A stretch of 64,000 nucleotides of DNA from an uncultured Candidatus Poseidoniales archaeon. Its GTDB lineage: Archaea > Thermoplasmatota > Poseidoniia > Poseidoniales > Thalassarchaeaceae. Positions 20,530 to 47,639 of this stretch are shown piece after piece (position 1 is the first letter of the stretch; each line of letters starts with the position of its first letter). The notes under the pieces were generated by a model. It searched no databases. It had not been told where the DNA came from and worked only from the letters and a program-made list of their open reading frames with translations. The translations under genes were made by a program, and so were the position numbers. The DNA lies in NCBI GenBank assembly GCA_902530535.1, contig CACAAP010000003.1:721-64720 (forward strand). Reading direction: 5' to 3'.

Positions 20530-23500
20530 GTGCGAGGCAGACTTGTACTGTTATCGATGGTTTTGCTACTGGCCTCTTCATTGTCTTCTTTGGCCTATGG
20601 GGCAACTCCAGACAACAATAACGATATCTCAGAAATCTCAGAAAACGAGCATAAAGTTCAGGGAACCCATAATCCATGGATAGAACAGTCACTTTTCGAT
20701 AGGTTCGAAACCGGACAGAAGAATATCCGTGTCACTGCCATCACTAGTTCTCTTGGGCACTTGGACACGTGGCAGAGGCAGATCGGAGCTATAGACAGGC
20801 AAGCTCCAGCCAGCCCGGGGGAAAGACTCTCTCATCATGAAACGACCTCCACTGGAACGGATCACCGGACCTTTTGGGTCAACTCCTCTTTTTTGCCAAA
20901 GCTAATCCAGGTTTCAGGAATCGTGGCTTTGCTGGATGCAGAGAATTCTCCAGAGCCCTATGGAATCTTACCCATCGAGCCGAGTCCCAATACTGTAAGA
21001 TCCGGAGAGATACACGGTGCGAATGATGCTTGGGAGATGGGATTCTCAGGCGAGGGGCTAATAGTCGCAGTTGCAGATACGGGGGTCGACTTCGCCCATC
21101 CCGATCTGAATGGGACCCAGGCCAGAGTTGGATTCCAGAACTCTTCATACTACGGCTGGCCTCTGATGTTCGATCACAACAGCATGTATACTTGGATGGT
21201 AGATGGAAAGGCCTACCCTGAGTCAAATACGTGGTATGCCGATACATCCATCGTAGATTTCGATAATGACTCGGACGGGATACTCGACGAATCGGGTTTG
21301 AACATCACAGGAGTGAACGAATCCCTATCAGGAGAGTATCACCTTGGGGAGCATCCTGACTGGCGCCTGCGTGACAGGGCCGGTGGCGACGTCCCGATTC
21401 TGGTCGTTGATGATCGATTATCAGGGGTATACGAGACCGTTTGGCCCGACACGGATAGAGACGGTTGGTTCGGCAACGAGACTCCCATGCGACCGGGAGA
21501 GGAGACATCTGGTAGGGATACGGATGGCGATGGTCTCTGGGACGTCTCCGCCGGACTCGTATACTGGGTATCCGATGGAGTAAACGGAGTCCCGTACGGA
21601 GGGACCTACTCTGCTAGACACGGGTACTCAGACAGGATCGCAGGACCCGGAAACCTGACTCTTTTCATGCTAGAGTCAGGAACACATGGGACCCTTTGTG
21701 CCAGTGCCATCTCCGCCCAGGGCGTCGTTGATGATGGCAGAGTACTAGGAATGGCACCAAATGCTACGATTTCCTCAATTGGAAACCACTACTCAGGAGG
21801 GCACTCATTGGATGCATGGAGATTCATTGCCGAGGGTTATGACGGAGATCCAAGCACACCAGATCAACCGAACATAGGGTCTTTCTCTTTCGGGTACTCT
21901 TCTGTCGACGACTCTGGGGCCGATGGATATTCCCTATACCTAGATTGGATAACCAGAGTTTACAACTCAAATGCATCGTACGCCGTAGCGATCGGAAACG
22001 GGGGTCACGGCTTCGGGACAACAAAGGTGCCAGGCGCTGCCCACGGGGTATTCTCAGTGGGTGCGTTCAGTAGCCGCTCCTCTGACTCATGGGGGCAGAG
22101 CGCACCATGGTCGAACAGAGGTCCAAACGCCGTTGGAAGGATGGATCCCGACATCGTAGCAGTCGGTTGGTCGGCAACTGGAGATATGCCACTCAACAAC
22201 TACGACAATGCAAACCAGGCATGGACGACATGGGGAGGGACCAGCCTGGCCACACCTGTAGTGGCTGGACTCCTCGCTCTGGTGGAGGAGGCTTGGCTGG
22301 AGAATAGGGGCTACCATCCTAAATCTCAGGAGCTCCGTGACTTCGTCCTATCAACCTCAGATGACAGAGGGTACGAGTCCTTTGTTCAGGGAGGCGGATG
22401 GATGAACGCCTCTCGTGCGGTCAAGACCCTAGCCGCAGAGAACGGAACGTGGTCTGCATCCCCTGCACAATGGAACACAGGTTGGTTCCATGGCAAGCAT
22501 AGAGACGCAAATCTGAATTCCATATCACCAGGAGAATCACAGACATTCGATGTCAAATTCGAAAACCCCGGGTCATCAGAACTCCAACTCAATCTGACAC
22601 CTGTCTCCTTCCAGCCCCTTGCTCACGAGGTCCTAGTCTGGAACAGCACAGGAAACGGATCAGGAGGCGGGGAGAACGACTCATGGGACGGACACCAAGG
22701 CGATAGACCGGACTTGCTCATACCCATACACATAACCAACGACTCCTCCCACAGACTTCACCCAGATACGGTGCAATTCAGAGCAAGAGCCACAATCCAG
22801 TATGACGCATTCGACGAGGATCTCGACAGGTCTTCAATGGAGCGGGTATATCTAGAGGTCTTCAGATGGAGTGATTTCGATGGCGATGGCACCTATCACA
22901 ACGACAGCGACAGCGATGGAATGGTTGACGAGTCAGAGTGGGAGGACTCAGAAGAGCTCGAGGAAGTGACCTACTGGTGGTATCATGGACCCCAAGCGGA
23001 GGTAAGAGTGGGCCTTCCTTTCGAAGATGCTCGAGATGGACTGCTACTTGGGGTCTGGAGGTACGATGCAAGTCCTTCGGGACTAGACCCAGTTCGGATA
23101 GAAATCGATTGGACCTCCTTCGGGATCTCCGATGACGAATGGATATCCACAAGCGAGAACATCGAAATCGAACCAGGCTCCAATCACACCGTACCCGTCA
23201 CTGTTTCAGTGCCACAAGACTCCACCCCAGGCCTCCATCAACACGGCATTCTCGTCCAATCACAATCAGCAGATGATCCCAATAATTCCAGAAGCTGGAC
23301 TCTGCCAATAGTAACAAACGTCCCTTGGGAGGGTCCCTTCTCCCTGCTCCCGAAACCCCTAGACGGCAACGTAACCAACCAGACCCTGTACACCGAATCC
23401 TGGATAAGTGGTGCGATGAGATGGGGCTGGAGGCCCGAGAGCGGGGACTGGAGGTTCCTCACAGTCGACTGGCCCGAGGAACTAGGCCAAGACGGGGCGA

Positions 23501-26496
23501 TCATCCTAGATGTTGATTGGGGTGACAACCCTTACACGGACATAGATGTGCTATGGCTTACTGAGACGGCTCACGGATACTACGATGACGATCCGGACTC
23601 GTATGGGCCTAGCACATTCTTCATCGAAGAACGATCGGTGAACAACCACGCAACGAGCGGACAGCACAACTGGGGGACATACACGGGTACCTCCAGAGAG
23701 ACCTTCGCAGTCCCAGCAACTTCCGGAACTCACCAAATGATCCTCCACACCGCACTGCACGGAGTAGAGACCAACGACAACCCCCTCAACATCTCAGTCG
23801 GATACATTTCAGCAGAATCCTCAGGCTTCAGCAGGACCGTTTCAGACTGGTCCGAGTCTGAAGGGAACGATACCGCCCTCGTGGTCTCTACAATGCCAAT
23901 GCCCGTGGAGTCCGTTTCTTCTCACGGTTGGGTCAGGCCCATCTACCTGGACAACCAGGTAGCATTCCAGGACGACCCAGGTGACAAGATGACAGCATCT
24001 TGGTGGTACAACTTGACCATGGAGGAGGCATCCGAGCTCACTGTCTCTATGGACTCTTATGATAGCGTGGATCTCGACCTATTCCTCTTCAGAGACGGAG
24101 ACGGAGACGGCATTTTCTCCTCAGGCGAAGAAGTCACGAGATCATGGAGCGGGACCTCTTCGGAAACGATTTCAGTAACAGATCCGGAGGACGGACTGTA
24201 CGGCGTAGCAGTCCACGGATATTCGGTGGATGGAGAAGGGACCGACTTCTGGATTGACATCGAGGTCGTCGCGGGGTCATCCTTGGACGTACCCTCATTC
24301 CACGATCTGAACGAATCAGTGATTTCCGATATCTGGCCTTCTGGTTCAGATTCCTTAGGGGGGCGAGTCCCCACCGGAGCGGTAGAGCTGAACATCAGCT
24401 ACCTAAGGCCTCCCGAGGAAGGGAACTGGACAGGCTTCATCGACCTATCCCTCGAAGGAGGTGCACTGATCCGACTCCCATATCACTACGAGTTAGTCGA
24501 ACTAGACCCAGAGATATCGTTCACAGCTCCCCTGAACCTCACTGAGACCAATACACAACTGCCAATAAAACTGCATGCAGCAGATATCGGAATAGGATTC
24601 AACATATCCGATCTGACTTGGACATGGCCGTCAAACAATACGACATTCCCAGCTGACTCGGTTTGGGGGTTATCCACAAACGGGACCCTCCACGACCTCA
24701 CCTCTATCTGGAATGGTGTCAGCAACTTATCCGACAACCTACTCCTGAGGGAGGCTTGGGTGAACTCGACACTCCCCGCTACCGAGCAATGGTTCGAATT
24801 CCACGCGATTGTCTCGGACGCATCCGGACGCACCTCCTCTTCGGACCTAGCCGTCTCCTACGATGTCACATCCCCGATGCTGGCCATTCACGGGGTTCCC
24901 TGGATAACAAACACCGAGACTCTGGACTTCCAGATACAAACCGAGCCCGGCTCGAACCTAGTGGTCGAAGGCTCCGTGGTCGAGACGAACGAGGAAGGCC
25001 TGGCAAACCTCTCCTTCGTACTGGAGGAATCGGAGATGGGCATATTCACTGGACAGTCTGGAGAACAGTCTTTCTACTACAACAGCGACCCTAACGTTTT
25101 CGAAGTCTCCTCTACGGACAATGCAGGCAACTCCGCCACGGCCTCTTTCCAGGTCGTTTACGACCCCTCACCTCCTTCAGAAGTATCCCTAATCACACTG
25201 CAGGACCAGGCATACTACAGCTACGGCCCAACCGAACTGCAACACCCGATCAACATAACAAGCGGCGAGGTGATCCTCGAAATCCCAGCCGATACGATGG
25301 AATGGTGCGTCTTCGTAATGTACTTCTCATGGGTCCAGACTTCAGATTGCACAGAAGAAACATCCCTGCCCCCAATCCTGAACGCGAGCACAGGATTCCC
25401 ACTTCCAGGCATTAACCAATATGAAGAAACCACAGAAATCTCCGTCCCACTCTCCCTAGAAGGGCTGGGACAGGGTGATGTAGCCATATCGATATCACTC
25501 GAGGACTGGGCCGGAAACACACACCATAGAAATTGGTCCCTGACTATGGACTCAATTGCCCCGGAAATATCCTGGGTACTCTCCCCATCCAGCGGAGATA
25601 CACTGGGGGACCACGTGCAGAACCTTTCGTGGTGGTCTTCGGAGGAAGTGTCCCTGAGGGTGTTCGTAAACGGAGTTGAGGTGACGACTCAGACCGGATC
25701 CTCCGGGTCCCGAGCGATGATTCTGAACTCCACAGGGAGCCAAACATTCTGCCTTCACGCCATTGACCGGACCTCTCCTCAGGAAAACAACAACTCATTC
25801 CACGAGTGCAGGGAAATGCAACTGCCTGAGTCAAACTACGACACATCGGTATCGGGAAGTAGCCAACCCTTGGTCTCACTCGATAGCATAGACATCATCC
25901 TAGACAGGCACCCGTCACAAGAAGTCCGCTGGACCAGCCTCACAACAGGATCAACGGGAGTGGTAGAACCGGGTACAGTCTACCCAGTCCTATCGCTCGA
26001 TCTGGTTGAAGGTCAGAACGAATTCCTAATCGAGATAGACTCACTAGATAGCACGGACTCCTACACAATTTCTGTAGAGCTAGACTCTACCCCTCCAGTA
26101 CTGGCATTCTCGGAGAAGACGTACCAGGGCTCCACACTGTCGAATCTCAGGGAGGTATCCGGAGAATGCGAACCCGGCCTTCTAGTTAGAATAAGCAGCG
26201 AAGTCCAATCGAGAGACTTAATCTGTCCTGAGACAGGCATCTTCCATCAGAACATCACCGTCCCCGACTCCCCAGGACAGCACATCTTGGAGGGATTCTC
26301 GATGGACCAAGCCAAGAACTCAAATCAATACCAGATTGACGTACTGAAGCAAGACTGGATAGACTGGGCCATAGACGATGCTCAGAACTCCGGGACCATG
26401 CTGTGGGTATTCTCCCTGAGTGGTATTGCGACTCTCTCCGTCATCATTGCAATAACGCTGAGAATAGCCAGAAGAAGGATGGTTCGGTCGGAGTAG
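20530..26496 (+). CDS. giant secreted subtilisin-like (S8) serine protease with about 1350-aa C-terminal beta-rich extension and C-terminal TM anchor (1988 aa; GTG start)
   Basis: Signal peptide MRGRLVLLSMVLLLASSLSSLAYG. Catalytic Asp in AVADTGVDFAHPDL (about 21070), His in ESGTHGTLCAS (about 21690), Ser in GGTSLATPVVAGLLAL (about 22240), with a large insert between Asp and His. C-terminal MLWVFSLSGIATLSVIIAITL + RIARRRMVRSE (TM plus basic tail). Confidence 0.85.
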   Translation: MRGRLVLLSMVLLLASSLSSLAYGATPDNNNDISEISENEHKVQGTHNPWIEQSLFDRFETGQKNIRVTAITSSLGHLDTWQRQIGAIDRQAPASPGERLSHHETTSTGTDHRTFWVNSSFLPKLIQVSGIVALLDAENSPEPYGILPIEPSPNTVRSGEIHGANDAWEMGFSGEGLIVAVADTGVDFAHPDLNGTQARVGFQNSSYYGWPLMFDHNSMYTWMVDGKAYPESNTWYADTSIVDFDNDSDGILDESGLNITGVNESLSGEYHLGEHPDWRLRDRAGGDVPILVVDDRLSGVYETVWPDTDRDGWFGNETPMRPGEETSGRDTDGDGLWDVSAGLVYWVSDGVNGVPYGGTYSARHGYSDRIAGPGNLTLFMLESGTHGTLCASAISAQGVVDDGRVLGMAPNATISSIGNHYSGGHSLDAWRFIAEGYDGDPSTPDQPNIGSFSFGYSSVDDSGADGYSLYLDWITRVYNSNASYAVAIGNGGHGFGTTKVPGAAHGVFSVGAFSSRSSDSWGQSAPWSNRGPNAVGRMDPDIVAVGWSATGDMPLNNYDNANQAWTTWGGTSLATPVVAGLLALVEEAWLENRGYHPKSQELRDFVLSTSDDRGYESFVQGGGWMNASRAVKTLAAENGTWSASPAQWNTGWFHGKHRDANLNSISPGESQTFDVKFENPGSSELQLNLTPVSFQPLAHEVLVWNSTGNGSGGGENDSWDGHQGDRPDLLIPIHITNDSSHRLHPDTVQFRARATIQYDAFDEDLDRSSMERVYLEVFRWSDFDGDGTYHNDSDSDGMVDESEWEDSEELEEVTYWWYHGPQAEVRVGLPFEDARDGLLLGVWRYDASPSGLDPVRIEIDWTSFGISDDEWISTSENIEIEPGSNHTVPVTVSVPQDSTPGLHQHGILVQSQSADDPNNSRSWTLPIVTNVPWEGPFSLLPKPLDGNVTNQTLYTESWISGAMRWGWRPESGDWRFLTVDWPEELGQDGAIILDVDWGDNPYTDIDVLWLTETAHGYYDDDPDSYGPSTFFIEERSVNNHATSGQHNWGTYTGTSRETFAVPATSGTHQMILHTALHGVETNDNPLNISVGYISAESSGFSRTVSDWSESEGNDTALVVSTMPMPVESVSSHGWVRPIYLDNQVAFQDDPGDKMTASWWYNLTMEEASELTVSMDSYDSVDLDLFLFRDGDGDGIFSSGEEVTRSWSGTSSETISVTDPEDGLYGVAVHGYSVDGEGTDFWIDIEVVAGSSLDVPSFHDLNESVISDIWPSGSDSLGGRVPTGAVELNISYLRPPEEGNWTGFIDLSLEGGALIRLPYHYELVELDPEISFTAPLNLTETNTQLPIKLHAADIGIGFNISDLTWTWPSNNTTFPADSVWGLSTNGTLHDLTSIWNGVSNLSDNLLLREAWVNSTLPATEQWFEFHAIVSDASGRTSSSDLAVSYDVTSPMLAIHGVPWITNTETLDFQIQTEPGSNLVVEGSVVETNEEGLANLSFVLEESEMGIFTGQSGEQSFYYNSDPNVFEVSSTDNAGNSATASFQVVYDPSPPSEVSLITLQDQAYYSYGPTELQHPINITSGEVILEIPADTMEWCVFVMYFSWVQTSDCTEETSLPPILNASTGFPLPGINQYEETTEISVPLSLEGLGQGDVAISISLEDWAGNTHHRNWSLTMDSIAPEISWVLSPSSGDTLGDHVQNLSWWSSEEVSLRVFVNGVEVTTQTGSSGSRAMILNSTGSQTFCLHAIDRTSPQENNNSFHECREMQLPESNYDTSVSGSSQPLVSLDSIDIILDRHPSQEVRWTSLTTGSTGVVEPGTVYPVLSLDLVEGQNEFLIEIDSLDSTDSYTISVELDSTPPVLAFSEKTYQGSTLSNLREVSGECEPGLLVRISSEVQSRDLICPETGIFHQNITVPDSPGQHILEGFSMDQAKNSNQYQIDVLKQDWIDWAIDDAQNSGTMLWVFSLSGIATLSVIIAITLRIARRRMVRSE

Positions 26497-26539: not shown

Positions 26540-27388
26540 ATGGCAGTTCACTCGGTAGGAGTCGTCGGCTCTGGGCAGATGGGGAACGGAATCGCTCAGG
26601 TCGCTGCTTGTAGCGGCAAGGAAGTCATGATGGTTGACATCAAAGAGGAGTTCCTCGAGAGAGCGGTGTCAACGATTTCCAACTCCCTGGATAAGCTTGC
26701 TTCCAAGGGAAGAATTACCGACGAGCAAGCCTCTTCCGCACTGTCCAGGATCAGTACATCAGTGAGCATGGACGCACTCTCTGCATGCGATCTAGTCGTC
26801 GAGGCGATACCCGAGATACCAGAACTGAAGTTCAGCACCTTCAGCCAACTGGACTCCATCTGCAAGCCAGAGGCAATCCTGGCAAGCAACACCTCGAGCA
26901 TCTCGATAAACGAGATAGCCAGCCACACAAAAAGGGCTGACCGAGTAATCGGGATGCACTTCATGAACCCAGTCCCGATCATGAAACTAGTAGAGGTCAT
27001 CAACGGCGAAGAAACCTCCGAAGAGGTCACTTCCGAAGTGATCTCAGCCTCCGAGGAGATGGGTAAGATCGCGCTTTCCTGCATGGACTCCCCCGGATTC
27101 GTCAGCAACAGGATCCTAATGCCAATGATCAACGAGGCAATCCTGACTCTGCAGGAGGGCGTAGCAGAGCCAGAGGCAATAGACGGGATAATGAAGCTGG
27201 GGATGAACCACCCAATAGGCCCACTTGCTCTTGCTGACCTGATTGGTCTGGATACGGTAATGCACATTCTGAACGTACTCGAAGAAGGCATGGAAGACGA
27301 CAAGTACGCACCCGCAGATCTACTCGTGGAGAAGGTATCCAAAGGAGAGCTAGGGAGGAAGTCCGGCACAGGATTCTACCATTACTAA
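26540..27388 (+). CDS. hbd: 3-hydroxyacyl-CoA (3-hydroxybutyryl-CoA) dehydrogenase
   Basis: VGVVGSGQMGNGIAQV NAD-binding motif. 282 aa, collinear with bacterial Hbd/FadB-type 3HCDH. Confidence 0.85.
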   Translation: MAVHSVGVVGSGQMGNGIAQVAACSGKEVMMVDIKEEFLERAVSTISNSLDKLASKGRITDEQASSALSRISTSVSMDALSACDLVVEAIPEIPELKFSTFSQLDSICKPEAILASNTSSISINEIASHTKRADRVIGMHFMNPVPIMKLVEVINGEETSEEVTSEVISASEEMGKIALSCMDSPGFVSNRILMPMINEAILTLQEGVAEPEAIDGIMKLGMNHPIGPLALADLIGLDTVMHILNVLEEGMEDDKYAPADLLVEKVSKGELGRKSGTGFYHY

Positions 27389-27406
27389 AACGATGCACTC
27401 GCACGC

Positions 27407-27430
27407 GGTGTGTTTTTTGCACCATTTTTC
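27407..27430 (+). terminator. terminator-like element after hbd: hairpin GGTGT-GTTTTTT-GCACC followed by ATTTTTC
   Basis: Sits 19 nt after the hbd stop codon. The same GGTGT-N7(T-rich)-GCACC plus T-run motif recurs after the next giant gene (31141). Confidence 0.4.
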
Positions 27431-30400
27431 ACCAACCTTCAATACACTCGGGCCTACGCCATAACCATGGGCGATACGGCAGCGACCGCTAGGGCACTGG
27501 CCACGATCTTGATTCTGAGCCTAATCTCCTCGATTGCAATCGCTGACGACGCAGGCTCGGGTTCAGACGCCGGTGGATCAGCTAGCACATCGACCTCCCT
27601 AAGCGCTACCAACTCAACCTACTCGGGAAACCTGTCCGCTACTGACACATCTGACTTCTACTCCATATCCATGCCCAATGGAACCGGAGTATCCGTTGGC
27701 CTGACCTCTCCCTCGGGGGCCGATTTCGACCTTTACCTATACGACTCGGGCAACTCGCAAATAGACTCCAGCCTCTCGACCTCTTCATACGACGAGGTCA
27801 CATCAAACGGCACCAGTATTGGCGGCACCACAGTCTACATCGAGGCTAGGAGGTGGTCGGGATCCGGGCAATACTCCCTACAGGTTTGGATATTCTCAGA
27901 ACCGCAAGCGCCTACCCAGAACGATGCGGGTACAGGAGGGGACGCTGGAGACGCCGCGACTTCTGCCACTGCTCTGAATTCGAGCAATCAGTCGGTATCA
28001 GGGTGGATCTCGGATACATTTGACACCCAGGATTGGTACAACATCTCAGTTCCATCTGGTAACGGCATCTTCGTTACCATGAGCTTCCCTAACGGATCCA
28101 CATCGGGCTCGCAACTCTCGCTCATCGAGTCAAGCGCAACCTACTACATCCAATACGACTACTCTTCCCCCTACGAGGTTTCGAGCAATGGCTCCAGCGT
28201 AGGGGGTAGCTACGTATACATCAGGGTACTTACCAACACAGACGAGGGCGACTACAACCTCACAATCACCCTGTTCTCCACTTCGGGGCAGCCTGGCTCC
28301 TCACAAGACGACGCTGGCTCAGGATTAGATGCAGGGGACTCATCTTCAACTGCCCTGCAGATAAACATGACCGGGAATCTCTCGACGTTCGAGGGATGGG
28401 TGGACAACAACTGGGACACAAGCGACTACTACTCCGTTTTCGTCCCTAACAACTGGACCACTTGGGCCTCATTGTCCTGGACGAACTCGTCGGCAGATCT
28501 GGACCTTTACCTCTATGACTCGAACCAGAACACCCTGTCTTACTCTTACTACGACAATCCCGAGACGGTATCAGCCAACTCATCTTCCGTTGGTGGAACA
28601 ACGGTTTACTACAACGTGTACGCCTACTCTGGCAATGACGTGTACTACAACCTGACAATAGGGCTGGCAAACCTCTCATCCAGCCCCGCCTACAATCAGA
28701 ACGACGCCAACTCCGGAGGAGACGCAGGAGATGACGTATCCACTGCACTCGACCTGGCTAACCAGAATGGGACATACTACGGATGGGTATCGGACACCTC
28801 CGACAACTACGACTTCTACTCCGTCCAAGTCCCCTCCAGCGTCGCCATAGAGGTAGAGCTTTCCTGGAACAACTCCGCAAACGACTTCGATCTCGGTCTG
28901 TACGATGAGGGCCAGTCACTGATAGACTCCAGCGTGTCTGACAACCCAGAATTCGTCGAGAGCGGCTCCACAGACGTAAGCAACACCACAGTCTACATCC
29001 TGGTTCAGTCCGTTTCGGGCACCTGGGGCAACGGAGGGGAGGGGGGATACACTCTGAACATCACATTCGTAAACCAGTCTGCCGTTCCCGGCCTGAACCA
29101 GAACGACGCATACACGGGAGGGGATGCGGGAGACGAGTACTCGAACGCCACCCCTCTAGTCAACGCAACGACCGGTTTCTCCGTATGGCCCGGGTACGTG
29201 GACAGCGGTTCAGACGACTACGACTACTACCAAGTCTACGTCCCCGTAGACCACGGAATTTCCCTCGAGCTATCTCCTGGGGCCGGTCAGTCGGACTGGC
29301 TGACACTCGCCCTCTATGACAGTTCCAACAGCCAGATAGACTCCTCCCTGTCCTCTAACCCCCAGGTCGTTTCCACAAATGCTTCCGGGACCTTCACGGG
29401 AGGGGAGAACCTCGTCATAGAGGTGTGGGCATACAGCGGGGGGGACAACTACAACCTGTCAATGTGGATATTCACCCTGGATGCGGATGGAGACGGTTAC
29501 TATGACCAAGTGGAGTACTCGTGCGGTTCCGATCCAAATGACAACTCCAGCACCCCCTCGGACGTAGACAACGACGGGATATGCGACCCGCTCGACGAGG
29601 ACATCGATGGTGACGGGGTGGACAACGCGAACGACACATTCCCGGAGGACGCGAACGAGACTACCGACAGCGATGGCGATGGAATCGGCGACAACGCGGA
29701 TACGGACGATGACAACGATGGGTGGTCAGACTCCGACGAGTACACGTGCGGTTCGGATTCGAACGACGCAGACTCATACCCCGATGACTTCGACGCAGAC
29801 TGGATTTGCGATGTTCTCGACGGGGACATTGATGGAGACGGGTACGATAACCAGTTCGACAGCTTCGACTTCGACCCCAACGAGTGGAACGACACCGACT
29901 CAGACGGAATAGGGGACAACTCAGACGGAGACGATGACGGTGACGGATTCAACGACGGAGTAGAGGAAGACTGTCTTTCCGACCCATTGGATCCCTCCTC
30001 GACACCGGAGGACACCGACTCAGACGGAGTATGCGACGAGCTAGACGATGACGTGGACGGGGACGGGATAGGCAACGACCTCGATGACTTCCCATTCGAC
30101 GATTCCGAGAGCACCGACACCGATGGGGACGGGATAGGCGACTCGTCCGACCCAGATGACGACAATGACGGATACCAGGACGACTTCGACGCCTTCCCAC
30201 TGGACTCAAGCGAGTGGAACGACAACGACGGCGACGGCCGGGGCGACAACGCGGACCTAGACGACGACAACGACGGATGGGACGATGCGGACGAGGAGTC
30301 CTGCGGTACCAACCCCTCTCTGGTGCAATCTGCCCCACAAGACTGGGACGGTGACAGGCTCTGTGACGTAAACGACCCCGACGACGACAATGACGCATGG

Positions 30401-31135
30401 AACGACACCGTTGACGCATTCCCCTACGACCCCAACGAGTGGGACGACCTGGATGCCGATGGACTGGGGTCCAACTCCGATCTCGATGACGACGGTGACG
30501 GTTGGAGCGACGACGACGAACTCAGCATATGCGGGACCGACCCCCGTGACCGGCTCTCCGTCCCAGCCGACTTCGACGGAGACAGGATTTGCGACAACCT
30601 AGACGACGATGACGACGACGACCTAGTACTGGACTTCGACGACGCCTTCCCGAAGGACCCAACAGAGACCAAGGACACGGATGGAGATGGCATCGGAGAC
30701 GGCTCAGACACCGATGACGATGGCGACGGATGGGCCGATTCCACCGAGGTGGTCTGCCAGACATCCCCAATCTCCGCCACAGAAGAGCCGTCGGACTTCG
30801 ACGACGATGGGACATGCGACCTGATAGACCCAGACGACGACAACGACGGGTGGACTGATCTCCAGGACGCCTTCCCATTCGATAGCCTCGAGTGGGAGGA
30901 CAGGAACTCTGACGGGCTAGGGGACAATGCTCACCCTCTCACGATCATGGACAAGATGAAGCTGAACCCGGGAGTATCGATAATGGCAATCGGATCGGTA
31001 GCAGCGATGCTATCTGGAACACTCGCATTCTTCTTCGGGAGAAGCAGGATGAAGGAGCAATTCGACGACGACCGGGGTTGGGACGAGGGACCCGAAGAGG
31101 ACGACGGATACTACGACGAATGGGAGTACCAGTAG
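27410..31135 (+). CDS. giant secreted protein: five tandem PPC (pre-peptidase C-terminal) domains plus thrombospondin type-3-like Ca-binding repeat array, then TM anchor and acidic tail (start probably ATG 27467)
   Basis: Five ~125-aa repeats, each QNDAGxGGDAGD...D.SD.Y...VP......DFDLYLYD...G.YNLTI (PPC signature DxDLYLYD) at about 27540-29480. Then about 30 copies of DxDGDGxGDNxDxDDDNDG (TSP3-like) at 29480-30900. C-terminal GVSIMAIGSVAAMLSGTLAFFFG plus acidic tail. Confidence 0.8.
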   Translation: MFFAPFFTNLQYTRAYAITMGDTAATARALATILILSLISSIAIADDAGSGSDAGGSASTSTSLSATNSTYSGNLSATDTSDFYSISMPNGTGVSVGLTSPSGADFDLYLYDSGNSQIDSSLSTSSYDEVTSNGTSIGGTTVYIEARRWSGSGQYSLQVWIFSEPQAPTQNDAGTGGDAGDAATSATALNSSNQSVSGWISDTFDTQDWYNISVPSGNGIFVTMSFPNGSTSGSQLSLIESSATYYIQYDYSSPYEVSSNGSSVGGSYVYIRVLTNTDEGDYNLTITLFSTSGQPGSSQDDAGSGLDAGDSSSTALQINMTGNLSTFEGWVDNNWDTSDYYSVFVPNNWTTWASLSWTNSSADLDLYLYDSNQNTLSYSYYDNPETVSANSSSVGGTTVYYNVYAYSGNDVYYNLTIGLANLSSSPAYNQNDANSGGDAGDDVSTALDLANQNGTYYGWVSDTSDNYDFYSVQVPSSVAIEVELSWNNSANDFDLGLYDEGQSLIDSSVSDNPEFVESGSTDVSNTTVYILVQSVSGTWGNGGEGGYTLNITFVNQSAVPGLNQNDAYTGGDAGDEYSNATPLVNATTGFSVWPGYVDSGSDDYDYYQVYVPVDHGISLELSPGAGQSDWLTLALYDSSNSQIDSSLSSNPQVVSTNASGTFTGGENLVIEVWAYSGGDNYNLSMWIFTLDADGDGYYDQVEYSCGSDPNDNSSTPSDVDNDGICDPLDEDIDGDGVDNANDTFPEDANETTDSDGDGIGDNADTDDDNDGWSDSDEYTCGSDSNDADSYPDDFDADWICDVLDGDIDGDGYDNQFDSFDFDPNEWNDTDSDGIGDNSDGDDDGDGFNDGVEEDCLSDPLDPSSTPEDTDSDGVCDELDDDVDGDGIGNDLDDFPFDDSESTDTDGDGIGDSSDPDDDNDGYQDDFDAFPLDSSEWNDNDGDGRGDNADLDDDNDGWDDADEESCGTNPSLVQSAPQDWDGDRLCDVNDPDDDNDAWNDTVDAFPYDPNEWDDLDADGLGSNSDLDDDGDGWSDDDELSICGTDPRDRLSVPADFDGDRICDNLDDDDDDDLVLDFDDAFPKDPTETKDTDGDGIGDGSDTDDDGDGWADSTEVVCQTSPISATEEPSDFDDDGTCDLIDPDDDNDGWTDLQDAFPFDSLEWEDRNSDGLGDNAHPLTIMDKMKLNPGVSIMAIGSVAAMLSGTLAFFFGRSRMKEQFDDDRGWDEGPEEDDGYYDEWEYQ

Positions 31136-31140
31136 AATTG

Positions 31141-31172
31141 GTGTACTTTTTGCACCTTGTGTGTTTTTTTTA
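31141..31172 (+). terminator. terminator-like element after gene 27410-31135: GGTGT-ACTTTTT-GCACC then TTGTGTGTTTTTTTT
   Basis: Sits 6 nt after the stop codon. It has an oligo-T tract, typical of archaeal termination, and shares its core motif with 27407-27430. Confidence 0.45.
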
Positions 31173-31333
31173 CTGAAATATCAACAAATCATCTTTTCAT
31201 TGGATTTACATAAACAGGAAAAAAATAATGATAAAATTTACTTTATCCGAAAAAAACTTCCTAAACAGGTTATTTTATGAGTATTATTTTCCGGAATAGT
31301 GAAAAATTATCAAGATGAGCATTCTGAGAGATG

Positions 31334-31341: not shown

Positions 31342-31366
31342 TGATACAAGTCGTGATAGTCACTAA

Positions 31367-42700: not shown

Positions 42701-45700
42701 CCAGATCGACGACTCGTGGGGCGACGGCGGACACGGCATCACCGTGACCAACGGCGCAGACACGCTATGCACCATAGGCCAGTACGACTACACGTCCACA
42801 GCCAGCTGCACGTTCGACCTGACTGCCTACTCCGACGAGGAGATCTCGGTAGCGGTCGACACTGACAGCTACGCATCCGAGGGCACTCTTACGGTGACCT
42901 TCGACGACGGAAGCACTGCGGTTGAGACATGGTCTGGGGACACCTCGTTCGACTACGCGCACGTGGGCGACGAGCTCCTCGAGCAGGAAGGCGAGTACAC
43001 CATCACGATCTCCGACCCAGGTTGGGGAGACGGCGGTCACGGCGTCGAGGCATACTTCAACGGAGAGAGCGTCTGCTCGATAGGGCAGTACGACTACTCG
43101 AGCTCCGCGTCATGCACCTTCACCGGAACCGGATTCCCGGACTCGGTGCTGGACATCGACATCGATACCGACAGCTACCCATCAGAGGGACAGCTGGACG
43201 TGACGTTCCCAGACGGAACGACCGCTACGGAGACATGGTCCGCTGACACATCGTTCAGCTACGCAAGCCACTCGGGCACGGACGTGCAGCCAGTGGCAGG
43301 CGAGGTCATGCTGAGCAACGGGCACGGCGCCACAGTGAGCCTGGACACCTCGTCCTACCACACTGGGACCGTGGACGACGACGACGACAACGACGGCTTC
43401 GCCGACGATGACGACGCGTTCCCGACCGATGACAGCGAGTGGGACGACATGGACGGCGACGGGGTCGGATCGAACACCGACAACGACGACGACGGCGACG
43501 GCACCAACGATGGCGTAGACGACTTCCCACGCCACGCGCATGCTCAAACCGATACAGATGACGACGGTATGCCCGACGAGATAGGATGGACAAACGGAGA
43601 AATCTTCGAACACTTCGATGCTGGAAACTATACTGGTATGGACGATTACACAGACAATGGATGGGATAGATCAGGAGATTCTCTGTTCGGAATATCATCT
43701 GCTGGCTTCTTAGATGGATATGCCGCTAGAGCAGGGGCAATTTCAGATAATGAGTCCTCTTCCTTAGAGTTAGTAATTGAAACTGCAGGAGGATACCTTT
43801 CATTCGATTACATAATCGATACTGAAGAGCGCTATGACGTACTTTCATTCAGCATAGATGGGATGGAATACTTCAGTGCTAGCGGACAGGAATATCACTG
43901 GGAGTTCATTTGCGATACTGCTGGCTCATACTCAGACACATCTTGGGAAGCAAACTCTCTGAATGACGGTTCGATCCCAGGAGACTGGGTTAACGACGGA
44001 TACGCTGACTGTGGAGATACTGATGGCGATGGAATTTCAGACGATGAAGGCCAGAGTGACTGGTATTCGAAGATTGAAGGGACCTTTGAGACATGGATCG
44101 ATGAAGGAAACCACACTCTAACATGGACATACACTAAGGATGGCTCTGTTTCAGGAGGTAGCGATCGGTCATACATAGATAACATCGTCTTCCCGTACTA
44201 CGTTATTGGCGATGGAGAGTGCTCCGACGGCACAGATGACTGCAACATAGAGGACATGGACGACGACAACGACGGCGTCGACGACTGGGACGACGACTGC
44301 CCGACCGACGCAGGAGAGCAGACCGACACAGATGGTGACGGATGGTGCGACAACGCTGACGCGGACGACGACAACGACGGCACGTACGACTACAACGACG
44401 CCATGCCGCTGGACCCCAACGAGACCAGCGACTTCGATGGCGACGGAATAGGCGACAACGCCGACCCAGACGACGACAACGACGGATGCGACGACGAGGT
44501 GGACGATCTGCCTTACGACGACTCCGACTGCGTCGACACCGACGGCGATGGGGTCGGCGATGATGCCGACCTGGATGACGACGGCGACAACGTCATGGAC
44601 GTCGATGACCCATTCCCGCTAGACGGATCAGCTTGGGCAGACAACGACGGCGACGGGGAAGCAGACGTAACTGGCGACCCACCGTTCCTAGGCAACTTCG
44701 AGGGAGCCTCGATTCCAGCCGGATGGACCACATTCGGCGACGCAGACTGGTTCGTTTGCGGCATGGGAACCTGCGGCACCACCTCAGGCAACGCAATCAA
44801 CGGCTCTTACATGGCCGAGTCAGGAGACATCGCCGACGCGGAAACGAGCTCTATCGAAGTCTCAATCGACACCCTAGCAGGGGACGTCTCGTTCGCTTAC
44901 GAGACCTCCACGGAGACCAACTGGGACTACCTGAGGTTCTACGTGGATGGCAGCCTGACCATGAGCTGGTCGGGCGTGACCTCCGGAACGTACACGACCA
45001 CGGTCAGCGCTGGATACCACACTTTCGAGTGGATGTACTACAAGGACTTCAGCGTCAGCAGCAACGCCGACACAGTCTGGATCGACGACGTGAGCCTGCC
45101 AGTATCGCAGGTCACTAACAACAGCGACCCAGACGACGACAACGACGGCGTGTACGACGAGTTCGACATCGACCCGTTGGATCCATGCGTGAGCCTGGAC
45201 ACCGACGGCGACGGCGAGCCAGACTGGGTTATGACAGGACTGTTCGACATGAGCGGAACGGGCGACGAGCAGTTCATCGTGGACTGCGACGCATCGATGT
45301 GGTCCGAGGACTGGGACGACGACGGCGACGGATGGAGCGATGAGCTGGAAGAACTATGCGGATCGAACCACCTAGACGGAGACGAGATGCCGATGGACAT
45401 GGATCAGGACTTCGTCTGCGACGATCTTGACGACGACTTGGACAACGACGGGGCTGTCAACCCGGTGAACAACTGCGAACTGTACCTGAACTCAGGAGAG
45501 ACGGACGCCTTCATCGACTGCATAAGCGATAGCTTCCACGCAGTCGATGCCGACGGCGATGGAGAGGCATCCTACATGGAACTCATGCACGCATGGACCT
45601 TCCAGTGGGCCTCCTCCGACATTGACGACGGGGACGACATGGTCACCTTCTTCTGCGGCGACGGCTCGGAGATACCCTTCGAGTGGGTCAACGATGAGAT

Positions 45701-47639
45701 GGATGACTGCGAGGACGGAGCCGATGAGCAGCAGTACGACGAGAACGGCGATCCGATCAACTGGTTCGACTGCTATGACGGCACCCAGGTGTGGATCTAC
45801 CAGGTCAACGACGGCTATCCAGACTGCCCAGACGGGGATGACGAGATGCCTGACGACGACTGGGACGACGAGGGCGACGACGACTGGGACGACGAGGACG
45901 ACGACGGCGGCGATGACGAAGGTAGCGAGGACATGGGCGGAATCGGATCACGTGACAACCACGAGAACGGCACCGACGAGAACGGCACCGACGAGAACGG
46001 CACCGACGACGGCGACGACCACGACCACGGCGACGACCACGACCACGGCGACGAGAACGGCACCGACGACGACGGCGATGACGGCGGCGATATGGTCTGC
46101 TACAACATCATGACCCATTCGGTGACCAACGACACCAGCGAGGAAAGCTGCGACGGGTACGCGTACTACGAGAACGCCTCCTTCAACGGGGCGAACTTCA
46201 CTGGATGCTACAACATGGTAACACACGTGGTGACCGGTGACGACGAGGCAACCTGCGATTCATACATGTGGGTCAGCGCATCTGGAGGACCAGGTGACGG
46301 AGGAGATGGTACCGACGACGGGGACGATGACACTGAAGAGCCCGAGGAGCCCGAGGAACCCGAGTCATGGCCAAGCCAAGACGACATGGCTGAATTCGAC
46401 ATGATGTTCTGGGACTGGGTCTCCCAGTGGGACGCGGACGCTAGCGACTCCCTGAGCTTCGACGAATTCTGGCAGATCAACAATGATACTGAGGAAGACT
46501 GGGACTTCGAGAACCCAGGTTGGTCAGAGGACACGACCGATTGGGACCAGTTCCCCTTCGACCCATCAGAGCAGACTGACACCGACATGGACGGAATGGG
46601 CGACAACTCCGACACAGACGACGATAACGACGGCGTCCCGGACGGCCTCGACGCCTTCCCATACGACCCGACCGAGTCTGCCGACCTGGACGGTGACGGA
46701 ATCGGGGACAACTCCGACAACGACACAGACGGTGACGGAATCGACAACGATCAGGACGACTTCGACAGCGATCCAAACGCTGCCGCGGACAACGACCAGG
46801 ACGGCGTCGACGACGCTTCTGACTCGGACGACGACAACGACGGCGTGCCCGACGTTGCAGACTGGGCGCCTTTCGACGCCTCCGAGCAGTACGACACAGA
46901 TGGCGATGGAGTTGGTGACAACGCAGACACGGACGACGACAACGACGGAACCGCTGACGCTGACGACGCCTTCCCGCTGGATGCCAGCGAGAACGCGGAT
47001 GCTGACGGCGACGGGGTTGGGGACAACTCCGACCCAGACGACGACAACGACGGCACACCTGATGGTCTGGACGACTTCCCGAACGATGCCACTGAGCAGA
47101 GGGACTCTGACGGAGACGGAATCGGAGACATAGCCGATCCTGACAGGGACGAGGACGGATACCTGAACTCGGACGACGCGTTCCCGATGAACGCCAACGA
47201 GTGGATGGACACCGACGGCGACAACATCGGCGACAACTCCGATCCAGATATTGACGGAGACAACGTCCTGAATGACGACGACTGGTCACCCTACGATGAA
47301 AACTGCAGAGTTTCCATCGAGAACTGTGAGTGGATGGACACCGACGGCGACGGAACCGGGGACAACGCTGACTCAGACGACGATGACGATACATGGTCGG
47401 ATGCAGACGAGTACTCCTGCGGAACTGACTCGAAGAATGCGAACGCAGTTCCATCGGACTTCGACGGCGACGGAATCTGCGACGCCCTGGACTCCGAGGA
47501 CAACAGGGGAGACGCCGGAGCCGGAGCTGCACCAGACGTGGTCCAGGAGGAACCAGGCTTCACGCCAGGCTTCGCATCCGTGCTAGCAGTCGTGTCCCTA
47601 CTGGGCGCAGCCGCACTAGGACGACGCGAAGAGGACTGA
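36726..47639 (+). CDS. giant secreted mosaic protein (about 3640 aa): more than 40 TSP3-like Ca-binding repeats interspersed with P-domain-like repeats, two MAM-like domains, LDL-receptor-A-like modules and a hyper-acidic region; C-terminal PGF-CTERM sorting signal
   Basis: Signal peptide MEKATQTARTLLMVAVMVAAAIVPMA. Start is 4 nt after the stop of the previous gene, with GGAGG 11 nt upstream. TSP3 motif arrays are throughout. C-terminus reads EEPGFTPGFASVLAVVSLLGAAALGRREED (PGF motif, TM helix, basic residues). Confidence 0.8.
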   Translation: MEKATQTARTLLMVAVMVAAAIVPMAPEAVELRDEARAMGASISTDVTSLTLDEGGSNWYEVSLDEAPDGTLVITPSSDNSVVTVDPSYIKFTKVNWDMPQYIWVDITDTDDDGADTTATISHSISGSDTVFASATIGDVSVTGTDYDIDTDGDGLHDGLDTDDDGDGIGDGNDAFPLDSSEDTDTDGDGTGDNADTDDDGDGTADSDDWAPLDDSEDTDTDGDGTGDNADIDDDGDGVNDSDEDDGCDLLVDCDGDGVNDDTDAFDSDANESADADGDGVGDNADDFDSDATEDTDTDGDGVGDNGDAFPDDSTETTDSDGDGVGDNGDAFPNDASETTDTDGDGVGDNSDWNATDSTESNDNDGDGVGDNADTDDDDDGVLDVDEDSNATLDCSILSDCDGDGVGDATDAFDVDPEAWDDLDGDGLADTFPNLLVNSYETIQLCGPEGGTEFYDATAYSDGPTGDYLAVSSSDDDSNGNNYEDTECTFTVPSGYTADVYLQTASYGSEARVTVDGTTYSGFSTGSDNDVVSLSAGTYTLYYEDSYGDGCNPSSYYGACFVQVSYENLVGQVVPSTSGFGTDLDNDDDGDGFSDADEDTCGTDSMNSTDAPTDTDSDGLCDAGVDDDDDDDGVLDSDEETGCDLLTDCDGDGVGDATDTHDNDATETSDMDGDGIGDNSDDDRDGDGYLNSNDEFPDDDSEWTDNDGDGTGDNADTDDDTCPEADGTDDDGDGTADHTCGTFTGLGSTMGYDFYPGDGVADVDDAFPMTPAESADNDGDGWGDNADADDDNDGISDAQDDDMDGDGFTNDDEDTNCVGDGGDSTSAGTTPDDMDGDGTCDYLDDDTDGDGTDDTSDAFPEDACADTDTDGDGDPDTLVSGCSTTLTEDGNDDYDPSAAPTPTSVCSIGSGSFASDSCTFTVAAGDELTIEMTTTSWASEAGLTLLEPGETAATNLELLTTSGSFSNYGSYSWTYTDAGEYTLTITDSYGDGGQSASAETVGATPIWTDSDEATCGTDPLDSTDEPTDTDGDGLCDDAQDDDNDGDGFSNADETTNCGEGNDALDSTDSPTDTDADGSCDALDTDDDGDGVDDANDACPLDDGESVDTDGDTVCDGDDTDDDGDGTADASDAFPLDSTEDTDTDSDGIGDNADTDDDNDTVADANDAFPLDATETTDTDGDGTGDNADTDDDGDGVDDASDACPLDGDESVDTDGDGVCNGDDTDDDGDGVDDADEADGSGLATATDCTLVTDCDGDGVDDADEADGSALDLDGDGTADGIDCAVDTDCDDDGTADDTDAFPVDASEALDTDGDGTGDNADTDDDGDGYSDADETTNCGDGTTTTAYSSSSDPLNASDTPDDMDGDGICDYTDTDRDGDGLANGWDACPDDGSGYTDTDGDGACDESDTDDDDDGTLDVNDAFPLDASEDTDTDGDGVGDNSDADDDGDGTDDQGDECPLDSSGITDNDGDGACDESDTDDDDDTVLDADEDSGCEFVTDCDGDGVGDEVDAFDTDAEATTDTDGDGMPDSITGATLTSETYTLEAWDAAGYTVVYAEEINGGTLCVIDSSLFEDTCTFSTSVGVNVYADNTQYSSYLAGDGGAILTTSDGTELVNESLVYQWYYDSYFGVYDLYSDSAVTTTDGLELDADDDGDGYGDAAEDTDCSTGDSTDSSVTPDDNDADGICDDLDDDDDNDGYSDSHESACGTDSLTADDVSDFDGDGTCDSEDADDDGDGTDDGDDWAPFDGSEWLDTDNDGTGDNADDDADGDGTPDSDDVDETDRCSSTDTDGDGMTDSYDDCSDMGFYSTLDADAGDNAGEGFDDGDHVGITDDTTLFGGAAAGNQWFQVADTDGVFRMYFDHATGVSAVSAWIALASTDYEDEDYYASYWVGDDGTTTKIGDSRDSWGNIDNCWCEGFWGQWVVEVPSEDGYLMLEASNDDDAEHWGLDNVAYHDNNWDVISMVTFEDSVGDMGVYTTPSTPALLAGTYTVQIDDSWGDGGHGITVTNGADTLCTIGQYDYTSTASCTFDLTAYSDEEISVAVDTDSYASEGTLTVTFDDGSTAVETWSGDTSFDYAHVGDELLEQEGEYTITISDPGWGDGGHGVEAYFNGESVCSIGQYDYSSSASCTFTGTGFPDSVLDIDIDTDSYPSEGQLDVTFPDGTTATETWSADTSFSYASHSGTDVQPVAGEVMLSNGHGATVSLDTSSYHTGTVDDDDDNDGFADDDDAFPTDDSEWDDMDGDGVGSNTDNDDDGDGTNDGVDDFPRHAHAQTDTDDDGMPDEIGWTNGEIFEHFDAGNYTGMDDYTDNGWDRSGDSLFGISSAGFLDGYAARAGAISDNESSSLELVIETAGGYLSFDYIIDTEERYDVLSFSIDGMEYFSASGQEYHWEFICDTAGSYSDTSWEANSLNDGSIPGDWVNDGYADCGDTDGDGISDDEGQSDWYSKIEGTFETWIDEGNHTLTWTYTKDGSVSGGSDRSYIDNIVFPYYVIGDGECSDGTDDCNIEDMDDDNDGVDDWDDDCPTDAGEQTDTDGDGWCDNADADDDNDGTYDYNDAMPLDPNETSDFDGDGIGDNADPDDDNDGCDDEVDDLPYDDSDCVDTDGDGVGDDADLDDDGDNVMDVDDPFPLDGSAWADNDGDGEADVTGDPPFLGNFEGASIPAGWTTFGDADWFVCGMGTCGTTSGNAINGSYMAESGDIADAETSSIEVSIDTLAGDVSFAYETSTETNWDYLRFYVDGSLTMSWSGVTSGTYTTTVSAGYHTFEWMYYKDFSVSSNADTVWIDDVSLPVSQVTNNSDPDDDNDGVYDEFDIDPLDPCVSLDTDGDGEPDWVMTGLFDMSGTGDEQFIVDCDASMWSEDWDDDGDGWSDELEELCGSNHLDGDEMPMDMDQDFVCDDLDDDLDNDGAVNPVNNCELYLNSGETDAFIDCISDSFHAVDADGDGEASYMELMHAWTFQWASSDIDDGDDMVTFFCGDGSEIPFEWVNDEMDDCEDGADEQQYDENGDPINWFDCYDGTQVWIYQVNDGYPDCPDGDDEMPDDDWDDEGDDDWDDEDDDGGDDEGSEDMGGIGSRDNHENGTDENGTDENGTDDGDDHDHGDDHDHGDENGTDDDGDDGGDMVCYNIMTHSVTNDTSEESCDGYAYYENASFNGANFTGCYNMVTHVVTGDDEATCDSYMWVSASGGPGDGGDGTDDGDDDTEEPEEPEEPESWPSQDDMAEFDMMFWDWVSQWDADASDSLSFDEFWQINNDTEEDWDFENPGWSEDTTDWDQFPFDPSEQTDTDMDGMGDNSDTDDDNDGVPDGLDAFPYDPTESADLDGDGIGDNSDNDTDGDGIDNDQDDFDSDPNAAADNDQDGVDDASDSDDDNDGVPDVADWAPFDASEQYDTDGDGVGDNADTDDDNDGTADADDAFPLDASENADADGDGVGDNSDPDDDNDGTPDGLDDFPNDATEQRDSDGDGIGDIADPDRDEDGYLNSDDAFPMNANEWMDTDGDNIGDNSDPDIDGDNVLNDDDWSPYDENCRVSIENCEWMDTDGDGTGDNADSDDDDDTWSDADEYSCGTDSKNANAVPSDFDGDGICDALDSEDNRGDAGAGAAPDVVQEEPGFTPGFASVLAVVSLLGAAALGRREED
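37620..37751 (+). repeat. 66-bp in-frame tandem duplication (2 copies, about 93% identical, with a partial third) inside the TSP3 array
   Basis: gacggcgacggcgtgggcgacaacggggacgctttccccgacgactccaccgagactaccgactcc is repeated with 4-5 substitutions. Confidence 0.8.
45963..46007 (+). repeat. 15-bp microsatellite (gagaacggcaccgac x3 = ENGTD x3), followed by an 18-bp x2 (DHDHGD x2) repeat
   Basis: Perfect direct repeats seen directly in the hyper-acidic region of the 3644-aa gene. Confidence 0.85.

Follow-up and report, generated by a model that had tools for sequence, protein, structure and literature searches.

What do four giant genes on the chromosome of an uncultured marine archaeon do, and do their products work together? 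The genes lie at positions 20530-47639 of a 64,000-nucleotide (nt) stretch of DNA, referred to here as the window (contig CACAAP010000003.1, positions 721 to 64,720 of the forward strand), from a Candidatus Poseidoniales archaeon of the Thalassarchaeaceae, or marine group IIb (MGIIb). Archaea of marine group II (MGII) are uncultured and among the most abundant in the surface ocean, and to our knowledge almost nothing is known of their cell surface. An earlier note, made from the sequence alone, had described four consecutive genes for secreted proteins forming one calcium-dependent surface system for attachment, proteolysis and peptide uptake. The reading that we favour, with moderate confidence, is that the first gene (g1) encodes a tethered protease of the S8 family, that the second and third (g2 and g3) encode PPC domains on thrombospondin type-3 (TSP3) stalks, and that the fourth (g4) encodes a lipid-anchored TSP3 thread made with g3. 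Domains, anchors and loops support the description of secreted, membrane-anchored, putatively calcium-binding surface proteins beside an S8 protease, with g1 only active-looking. The four giant open reading frames (ORFs) are located as described, but they are not consecutive, since a 3-hydroxyacyl-CoA dehydrogenase (3HCDH) gene, gX, separates g1 from g2:

20530-26496, plus strand: g1, membrane-anchored S8 protease, 1988 amino acids (aa)
26540-27388, plus strand: gX, 3-hydroxyacyl-CoA dehydrogenase, 282 aa, a housekeeping beta-oxidation gene outside the surface set
27410-31135, plus strand: g2, PPC/TSP3 surface protein, 1241 aa
31367-36721, plus strand: g3, surface protein, 1784 aa
36705-47639, plus strand: g4, 3644 aa (3637 aa from the ATG at 36726)

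The Peptidase_S8 domain of g1 (PF00082; 116.5 bits against a cut-off of 21.8, E 1.9e-33) covers residues 174-619 (21049-22386). The intact subtilisin Asp/His/Ser triad claimed for this protein is borne out, all residues being in canonical motifs: D183 in VAVADTGVD (codon 21076-78), H386 in SGTHGT (21685-87), the oxyanion N490 in AIGNGG and S572 in GGTSLATP (22243-45). The Asp and the His are separated by an insert of about 200 aa which carries DxDxDG loops. Subtilases matched by g1 in the PDB include SubHal, KP-43 and Tk-SP, with C5a peptidase weakly among them. A PPC-like domain at 24004-24219 scores near the threshold (25.3 bits, cut-off 25.9), about 1300 aa of beta-rich sequence without domain assignment precede the C-terminal helix, and hydropathy places a C-terminal transmembrane (TM) segment at 26392-26460, followed by a basic tail. 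Orthologs with 51-95% identity occur in about 20 genomes. With a Sec-type signal peptide, an active S8 domain, a beta-rich spacer and a single C-terminal membrane helix, g1 would be a cell-envelope protease that cuts extracellular proteins close to the cell surface. Lactococcal PrtP and the streptococcal C5a peptidase are likewise surface-anchored S8 proteases of about 1900 aa with a long non-catalytic stalk of beta-domains; g1 differs from them in its membrane helix, which takes the place of LPXTG, and in the large insert between Asp and His.

Arrays of TSP3-type calcium repeats occupy about 485 aa of g2 (29480-30934) and about 600 aa of g3 (34682-36502), and run throughout g4, where they are broken up by beta-sandwich modules. 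The DxDxDG sites in g2, g3 and g4 number 26, 26 and 123 (175 in total), compared with 0.8, 0.8 and 7.3 expected from composition-matched shuffles. The strict loop DxDxDGxxDxxD occurs 10, 13 and 62 times (85 in total) and about zero times in the shuffles, implying that the calcium loops are not a by-product of aspartate richness. The repeat period in the DNA is 105 nt, or 35 aa, and the copies are 60-80% identical. When the g2 array is compared with all PDB sequences, only COMP, TSP-2 and TSP-1 match, through their type-3 repeats (E 7.8e-9 to 4.5e-7). With TSP_3 (PF02412) and TSP3_bac (PF18884), the best whole-protein scores are 24.3 bits for g4, 23.4 for g3 and 22.0 for g2 (E 2.5e-5 to 1.5e-4), and the NCBIfam model throspo3_MtsC matches all three proteins in part (E 2.6e-20 to 2.4e-14). 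The repeats are nearer to the bacterial TSP3_bac, with its 'FPxDxxE' flavour, and to MtsC, so that the term 'eukaryote-like' used earlier for these modules describes a superficial likeness.

Two known types of protein help to place these arrays. Thrombospondins (TSP) and COMP have in common with g2-g4 the DxDxDGxxDxxD loops, the pairing of cysteines and a period of about 35-36 residues. They have about 13 motifs per subunit, however, whereas 85-175 loops are spread over the three archaeal proteins, which lack EGF, coiled-coil and lectin-like C-terminal domains. The Myxococcus proteins MtsC and MtsD resemble g4 in having, besides TSP3 repeats, a tripartite sorting tag at the C-terminus and lipid anchoring at the surface. 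MtsC, a cell-cell cohesion protein, carries MYXO-CTERM (myxosortase), while the tag of g4 is PGF-CTERM (archaeosortase); g4 is about 8 times longer and has extra modules, and the throspo3_MtsC scores of 53-73, far under the equivalog cut-off of 350, indicate that it is not an ortholog.

All four proteins are highly acidic in the extreme; g4 has 25% Asp and 1112 Asp+Glu compared with 32 Lys+Arg. N-glycosylation sequons are enriched about 2-fold in g1-g3 and show no enrichment in g4. Seawater contains about 10 mM Ca2+, and in the type-3 'wire' of TSP and COMP the occupied calcium loops stiffen the chain. By analogy, 85 or more loops would be calcium-loaded in seawater, which would neutralise a net charge of roughly -1000 and turn the chains into stiff, extended stalks.

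The modules carried by g2 and g3 are mainly of the PPC type. The likelier start of g2 is the ATG at 27467, which yields a normal signal peptide. The five tandem PPC domains reported for this protein are confirmed at 27545-29479, where alignment reveals five paralogous units, about 128 aa long and all beginning with NDAGSGGDAGD; three of the five match PPC (PF04151) in segment scans (27.6, 20.5 and 21.1 bits, cut-off 25.9). The first g2 repeat and residues ~1018-1068 of g3 (32.7 bits) pass the cut-off as segments. The remaining copies score 17-22 bits, yet their identity of 28-44% to the passing copies makes them clear paralogs. Beyond its array, g2 has a TM segment (30968-31036) and an acidic cytoplasmic tail. 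In g3, the N-terminal beta-domains are Cys-rich, PPC-like units lie at 32384-34681, and the C-terminal TM segment at 36536-36595 is weaker and Ala/Gly-rich, with a Kyte-Doolittle value of 1.28. The PPC-like units proposed for g3 are thus upheld, but the P-domain-like ones are not: in neither g3 nor g4 do the GxYTLxIxDSYGDGG modules match P_proprotein (PF01483), even with E allowed up to 1-10. One such module matches PPC weakly (22 bits), and the P-domain reading of these modules was rejected because it has no support from hidden Markov models (HMMs).

All four proteins begin with a hydrophobic segment, and a clear C-terminal hydrophobic segment is present in g1, g2 and g4, so the signal peptides and membrane anchors attributed to all four are recovered as hydrophobic segments, that of the g3 anchor being weaker. 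We envisage g2 and g3 as type-I membrane proteins that would hold distal PPC-type beta-sandwiches on a disulfide-stapled stalk of TSP3-like calcium loops. After its membrane helix, g3 has an acidic tail motif, DYTEEFEDFDF (36638-36670, residues 1758-1768). In three relatives (L017, L020 and L013), DYT(E/D)EFEDFDF is invariant despite 46-48% overall identity, which points to constraint, through either an intracellular interaction or a sorting role.

The start of g4 can be placed either at the ATG at 36705, which gives a 17-nt overlap with g3 (stop codon TGA, 36719-36721), or at the ATG at 36726, which leaves a 4-nt gap and has GGAGG upstream. Judged from this arrangement, g3 and g4 are translationally coupled whichever start is used; the coupling proposed earlier stands, and the distance of 4 nt holds only for the second start. 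At its other end (47553-47636), g4 carries a PGF-CTERM tag, as had been noted, with the tail EEPGFTPGFASVLAVVSLLGAAALGRREED: PGF, a hydrophobic helix and basic residues at the extreme C-terminus. The models are divided on it: PF18204 of Pfam gives 19.8 bits, over its cut-off of 18.8, and TIGR04126 falls short of its own. The tail is kept in g4 orthologs and in at least 8 other, smaller Poseidoniales TSP3 proteins, so TSP3 with PGF-CTERM is a recurrent architecture in Poseidoniales. The tag predicts archaeosortase cleavage and lipid anchoring of g4. The S-layer glycoprotein of Haloferax volcanii, an ArtA/PGF-CTERM protein, is similarly acidic and has the PGF motif, hydrophobic stretch and basic residues; outside the tag there is no similarity, the one being a lattice protein and the other a repeat thread. 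Made together with g3, g4 would be a very long TSP3 thread bearing jelly-roll (CBM/MAM-like), PPC-like and LDL-receptor class A-like (LDLa-like) modules.

LDL-receptor class A modules have six cysteines that form three disulfides. Two LDLa-like cages occur in g4 at 45648-45848, and a third lies at 43974-44042, in an insert of about 60 aa within the first jelly-roll domain. Each copy keeps two of the six cysteines and retains the acidic cage W/VxNDGxxDCxDGxDE, and the earlier term 'degenerate' is apt. Ldl_recept_a (PF00057) marginally matches two stretches of the isolated residues 2840-3052 (24.7 bits, cut-off 24.1, E 2.7e-5) and reports no match when the whole of g4 is scanned. The hyper-acidic block that the note had seen in g4 is a His/Asp block at 45849-46094. 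Within 45840-46094 there are two micro-repeats, a perfect one of 15 nt x 3.3 encoding NGTDE (N-glycosylation sequons) and one of 18 nt x 2.8 encoding DHDHGD (His/Asp, possibly metal-binding). They look young, and the diverged TSP3 repeats look much older.

The two domains of g4 that had been called MAM-like are at 43587-44204 (residues 2295-2500) and 44676-45107 (residues 2658-2801) and are paralogs (E 3e-12). On either domain MAM (PF00629) has no match at E up to 10, and there is none in NCBIfam. Pfam and NCBIfam name no family for the whole domain, giving just partial, sub-threshold matches to Big_7, and profile searches of PDB sequences return weak matches to CBM22 and VesC and no MAM chain. 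When 1.84 billion representative proteins, from a library of public genomes and metagenomes without taxonomy, were searched exhaustively with a profile, 13,525 proteins matched at E<=1e-3, of which 8,747 reached E<=1e-10; the family comprises at least 13,525 protein clusters at 50% identity. Giant proteins, up to 7,781 aa long and with up to about 30 copies each, are numerous among them, and a separate family definition for the jelly roll may be warranted. Its consensus reads ...SFYWKVSSE..YD.L.FYIDG...ISGE.DW...L.AG.HTL.W.Y.KD.S.S.G.D.AWID.V.

With 50 sequences from this search, AlphaFold2 predicts an 11-stranded jelly roll (predicted local distance difference test, pLDDT, 92.6; predicted template modelling score, pTM, 0.88). 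A model from an earlier, shallow alignment (5 matches from a word-indexed search) reached a pLDDT of 55 and was discarded once the exhaustive search had supplied the better alignment. The likeness of the retained model to known structures is 14.6 for the VesC C-terminal domain, 14.3 for Elapor1, 13.6 for CBM61, 13.3 for both Reelin and the MAM domain of PTPRK, 13.1 for the Gingipain K1 adhesin, 13.0 for the MAM domains of SR-C and RPTPmu and 12.9 for that of Neuropilin. Identity of the g4 domain to the VesC domain, CBM61/CBM22/CBM35, the gingipain 'cleaved adhesin' and MAM is only 11-20%, and the g4 jelly roll is unlike those modules in that it matches no MAM, CBM or Cleaved_Adhesin model of Pfam and belongs to a very large family of its own. 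The MAM family has four conserved cysteines. Domain 2 has two cysteines only, in one loop (FVCGMGTCG), and those of domain 1 flank the insert of about 60 aa or sit within it. The MAM-type fold of the earlier claim is therefore supported by the model, but its family assignment is not, there being neither an HMM match nor the four-cysteine pattern. The term 'MAM-like' thus fits the modelled fold, not the family, and the domain is a generic jelly roll of the binding type.

A search with g3 against one genome per species recovered full-length orthologs at 38-87% identity, about 20 of them from Candidatus Thalassarchaeaceae/Poseidoniales (MGIIb) genomes. The order acyl-CoA dehydrogenase (acyl-CoA DH), g1, 3HCDH, g2, g3, g4 recurs in about 20 species genomes, and a gene for an OPT-family oligopeptide transporter comes next in the conserved order; gX lies between g1 and g2 in all orthologous loci, and AspRS is found further upstream in some. 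The genes have similar lengths and the same anchors, and come from about 20 independent assemblies, with contigs of 70-170 kb among them. The single-cell genomes AG-422-I20 and AH-287-M04 carry the locus at 88% nucleotide identity. Distant relatives have a g4 of 2768-2903 aa and one further relative a g4 of at least 3349 aa, compared with 3644 aa in the window. Compared with the closest relative (L003), protein identity is 93-95% for g1, gX and g2 and 80% for g3; compared with L001, it is 92% for g1 and 66% for the g4 N-terminus. Alignment of 20530-37800 with L003, L001 and L002 suggests faster evolution of g3 and g4, or recombination. In L017 (contig CALSZZ010000003), the g3 ortholog is split into overlapping frames at 12530-16633 and 16611-17741, either by a frameshift error or as a real pseudogene.

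If the favoured reading is right, the analogy with TSP/COMP and Myxococcus MtsC suggests that the stalks would hold out their binding modules towards other cells, algal surfaces or particles. Peptides freed by g1 may enter through the OPT transporter and others, a link that is ecologically plausible. Several points weigh against this reading. MGIIb archaea are reported to be mostly free-living (PMC6864105, PMC8821943), which is awkward for particle attachment, and conservation of the genes in every relative examined would also fit a structural envelope role. In g2, g3 and g4 the scores with TSP_3 and TSP3_bac narrowly miss the cut-off of 25 bits. Hydropathy is the sole basis for the signal peptides and the g3 anchor, TIGR04126 (PGF_CTERM) gives g4 17.8 bits, under its cut-off of 24.5, and no archaeosortase A is encoded within the 64-kb window, to which the search was limited.

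An envelope role leads to the first alternative, that g2, g3 and especially g4 form the main cell coat of MGIIb, similar to an S-layer or glycocalyx, and are not particle adhesins. The coat would be a calcium-cross-linked layer of acidic glycoprotein, lipid-anchored through PGF-CTERM. Such a role would suit genes, architecture and anchors that are alike in all of the approximately 20 related genomes recovered, proteins that are extremely acidic and, in g1-g3, enriched in sequons, and cells described as largely free-living (PMC6864105). PGF-CTERM also tags the Haloferax S-layer glycoprotein (PMC11980579), and the literature searched contained no MGII S-layer protein and nothing useful in the way of MGII metaproteome or S-layer work. 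Known S-layer proteins, however, do not have thread-like repeat arrays with interspersed binding modules. The variation of g4 between 2768 and 3644 aa among relatives and the faster divergence of g3 and g4 than of g1 and g2 are more typical of variable adhesins, and the many smaller TSP3 proteins with PGF-CTERM in the order make g4 a member of a family, not a unique wall protein. We therefore consider the coat possible but rather unlikely, and retain adhesive stalks beside a tethered protease as the better account.

The second alternative is the integrated system of the earlier note, in which the four giant genes and the OPT gene are co-regulated for calcium-dependent attachment, proteolysis and peptide uptake. 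The features that bear on it are:

31136-31366, plus strand: spacer between g2 and g3, AT-rich, 231 nt
47663-47700, plus strand: G+C-rich hairpin, about 25 nt past the g4 stop
47743-48129, plus strand: aIF5A, between g4 and OPT (TIGR00037, 113.6 bits, cut-off 75.45)
48164-50584, plus strand: OPT-family oligopeptide transporter, 806 aa, about 12 or more TM segments

All these genes share one strand with close spacing, their functions are complementary, and their order is family-wide, with OPT likewise 3' of g4 in L017 and L020. The transporter itself is well supported (PF03169, 114.6 bits against a cut-off of 25.8, E 7e-33, model positions 4-622 of 623). There is also the analogy of lactococcal PrtP and Opp, in which a surface protease supplies peptides to an oligopeptide importer in a heterotroph dependent on amino acids; no genetic coupling is seen here, and OPT is a transporter family distinct from Opp. 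Against integration, 3HCDH separates g1 from g2 and aIF5A separates g4 from OPT, so that the statement that OPT lies just downstream is right as to its position but passes over aIF5A and a conserved hairpin. The collinearity takes in AspRS and acyl-CoA DH as well; because it extends to unrelated housekeeping genes, the synteny reflects general family collinearity and is no sign of functional linkage. In the recovered MGIIa genomes, the matches were to TSP3 regions only, and no g1-like gene was detected within the ~10 kb fetched on each side.

The spacers also argue against a single operon. The 17-nt hairpin/T-run motif GGTGTnnTTTTTGCACC occurs exactly twice in the 64 kb (0 expected), at 27407-27423 after the 3HCDH stop and at 31140-31156 after the g2 stop, and so brackets g2. 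It is kept after g2 in L001, L003 and L015 and before g2 in L004, and may be a terminator-like hairpin or the trace of a g2 insertion. In the spacer between g2 and g3, the short hairpin GGTGTACTTTTTGCACC at 31140-31156 is followed by T8, and a TATA-like TTTATAT stands at 31334-31340, about 27 nt upstream of the g3 start. The terminator and AT-rich promoter described between these genes are thus present as elements; their roles are putative, the spacer being consistent with an archaeal promoter and a nearly leaderless g3 mRNA. After g4, a perfect 12-bp G+C stem lies in a 90-nt stretch that folds at -41.5 kcal/mol. In L017 and L020 the position and pairing of this hairpin are kept, its stem bases are changed and a T-run follows, in loci whose g4 is only about 48% identical, and it is likely to be a transcript end or stabiliser. 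A conserved AATGCTGATAAG box precedes aIF5A, hairpin and box both lying within 47663-47712. Together, the terminator-like elements after gX, g2 and g4 and the coupling of g3 with g4 point to g1, gX, g2, g3-g4 and aIF5A(-OPT) as the likely transcription units. With housekeeping genes and terminator-like elements interrupting the series and just g3 and g4 coupled, we judge one integrated system to be unlikely.

A third idea carries the coat further: MGIIb would have no conventional S-layer and would instead be covered by a calcium-loaded glycoprotein coat of the TSP3 proteins g2, g3 and g4, anchored by membrane helices and archaeosortase-linked lipid, with the tethered S8 protease inside it. If true, one of the most abundant archaeal groups of the surface ocean would have a kind of envelope not recognised before in archaea, and TSP3 proteins would be the main archaeosortase substrates in MGIIb, but we regard it as a long shot. 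An artefact, whether low-complexity Asp-rich sequence or a mis-assembled or collapsed repeat region, is hardly credible: many public contigs do end inside g3 or g4, indicating that the region is hard to assemble, and one ortholog (L017) has the apparent g3 frameshift, but the repeat copies are just 60-80% identical in DNA, the motifs are structured far beyond Asp richness and accompanied by specific domain matches, and recurrence of the gene order in about 20 species genomes, with full-length orthologs in independent assemblies that include single-cell genomes and contigs of 70-170 kb, excludes it.

How new, then, is a tethered protease beside TSP3 adhesins in these organisms? Passages from earlier studies contain several of the elements. 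Rinke et al. found thrombospondin genes to be widespread in Ca. Poseidoniales and took them as evidence of adhesion (PMC6461757), Orellana et al. found that each MGII genome has 1-4 genes for extracellular S8 proteases (PMC6864105), and Tully listed extracellular peptidases and an oligopeptide transporter among core MGII traits (PMC6336850). Orsi et al. reported that particle fractions contained hypothetical MGII proteins bearing calcium-dependent adhesin domains, and pointed to the multiple adhesion domains of the first MGII genome (PMC4511931). For an MGIIb bin, transcription in situ is documented of a subtilase and of a gene with TSP3 repeats (supplement of PMC9723583). The claim that this mosaic is not a described system accordingly goes too far, thrombospondin genes, extracellular S8 proteases and an oligopeptide transporter each having been reported for MGII. 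As far as those passages go, the earlier reports concern the same organisms and gene classes and give the same reading of adhesion and proteolysis; they deal with gene presence only and do not describe the arrangement and sizes of g1-g4, the PGF-CTERM tags or the LDLa-like and jelly-roll modules. Our literature search found no paper linking archaeosortase or PGF-CTERM with MGII/Poseidoniales. The locus is an unusually large member of a recognised class, the calcium-dependent adhesin and protease genes of MGII, and g1-g4 fit the view of MGII presented in the passages available, that of particle- and protein-degrading heterotrophs (PMC6461757, PMC6336850, PMC6864105, PMC4511931). The earlier note was largely correct in what it saw; its reading, sound in outline, claims too much integration and too much novelty. 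The finding refines the existing picture of MGII without overturning it.

About 26 kb of coding sequence is spent on these four surface proteins and conserved across the MGIIb family, making them candidates for contact of the cell with particles, algae, viruses and dissolved protein. The protease domain, the TSP3 segments, the confidently modelled jelly roll and the PGF-CTERM tail are defined targets for expression, for antibodies in enrichment or imaging, and for metatranscriptome and metaproteome mapping.

The region is ordinary MGIIb (Thalassarchaeaceae) chromosome and, in the favoured reading, bears several separately transcribed surface-protein genes. Pfam and NCBIfam scans identify AspRS, SRP54, aIF5A, TrkAH and beta-oxidation genes as housekeeping content. 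The product of gX matches 3HCDH_N (E 1e-63) and 3HCDH (E 5e-33). Its identity with the MGII 3HCDH of reported high transcription was considered and rejected, the latter being a fused enoyl-CoA hydratase/3HCDH, K15016 (published supplement). The archaeal origin of the window is confirmed by two RNA genes just upstream of AspRS, one for an RNase P RNA of archaeal type (13400-13691, minus strand, 235.7 bits) and one for tRNA-Lys(ctt) (14516-14592).

Directly upstream of g1 there is a low-GC islet of 2.7 kb (17631-20443; GC 0.43, compared with 0.50-0.55), flanked by acyl-CoA DH and tRNA-Gln(ttg) (20368-20443, minus strand). Its three ORFs, all on the minus strand, are 133, 260 and 444 aa long, and the longest has about 10 TM segments; none of the three has a match in Pfam, NCBIfam, PADLOC or PHROGs. 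In L003, the closest relative, the islet is missing and the gap measures about 50 nt, while L015 and L002 have divergent versions (31-39% aa identity), and it looks like a tRNA-linked variable insertion.

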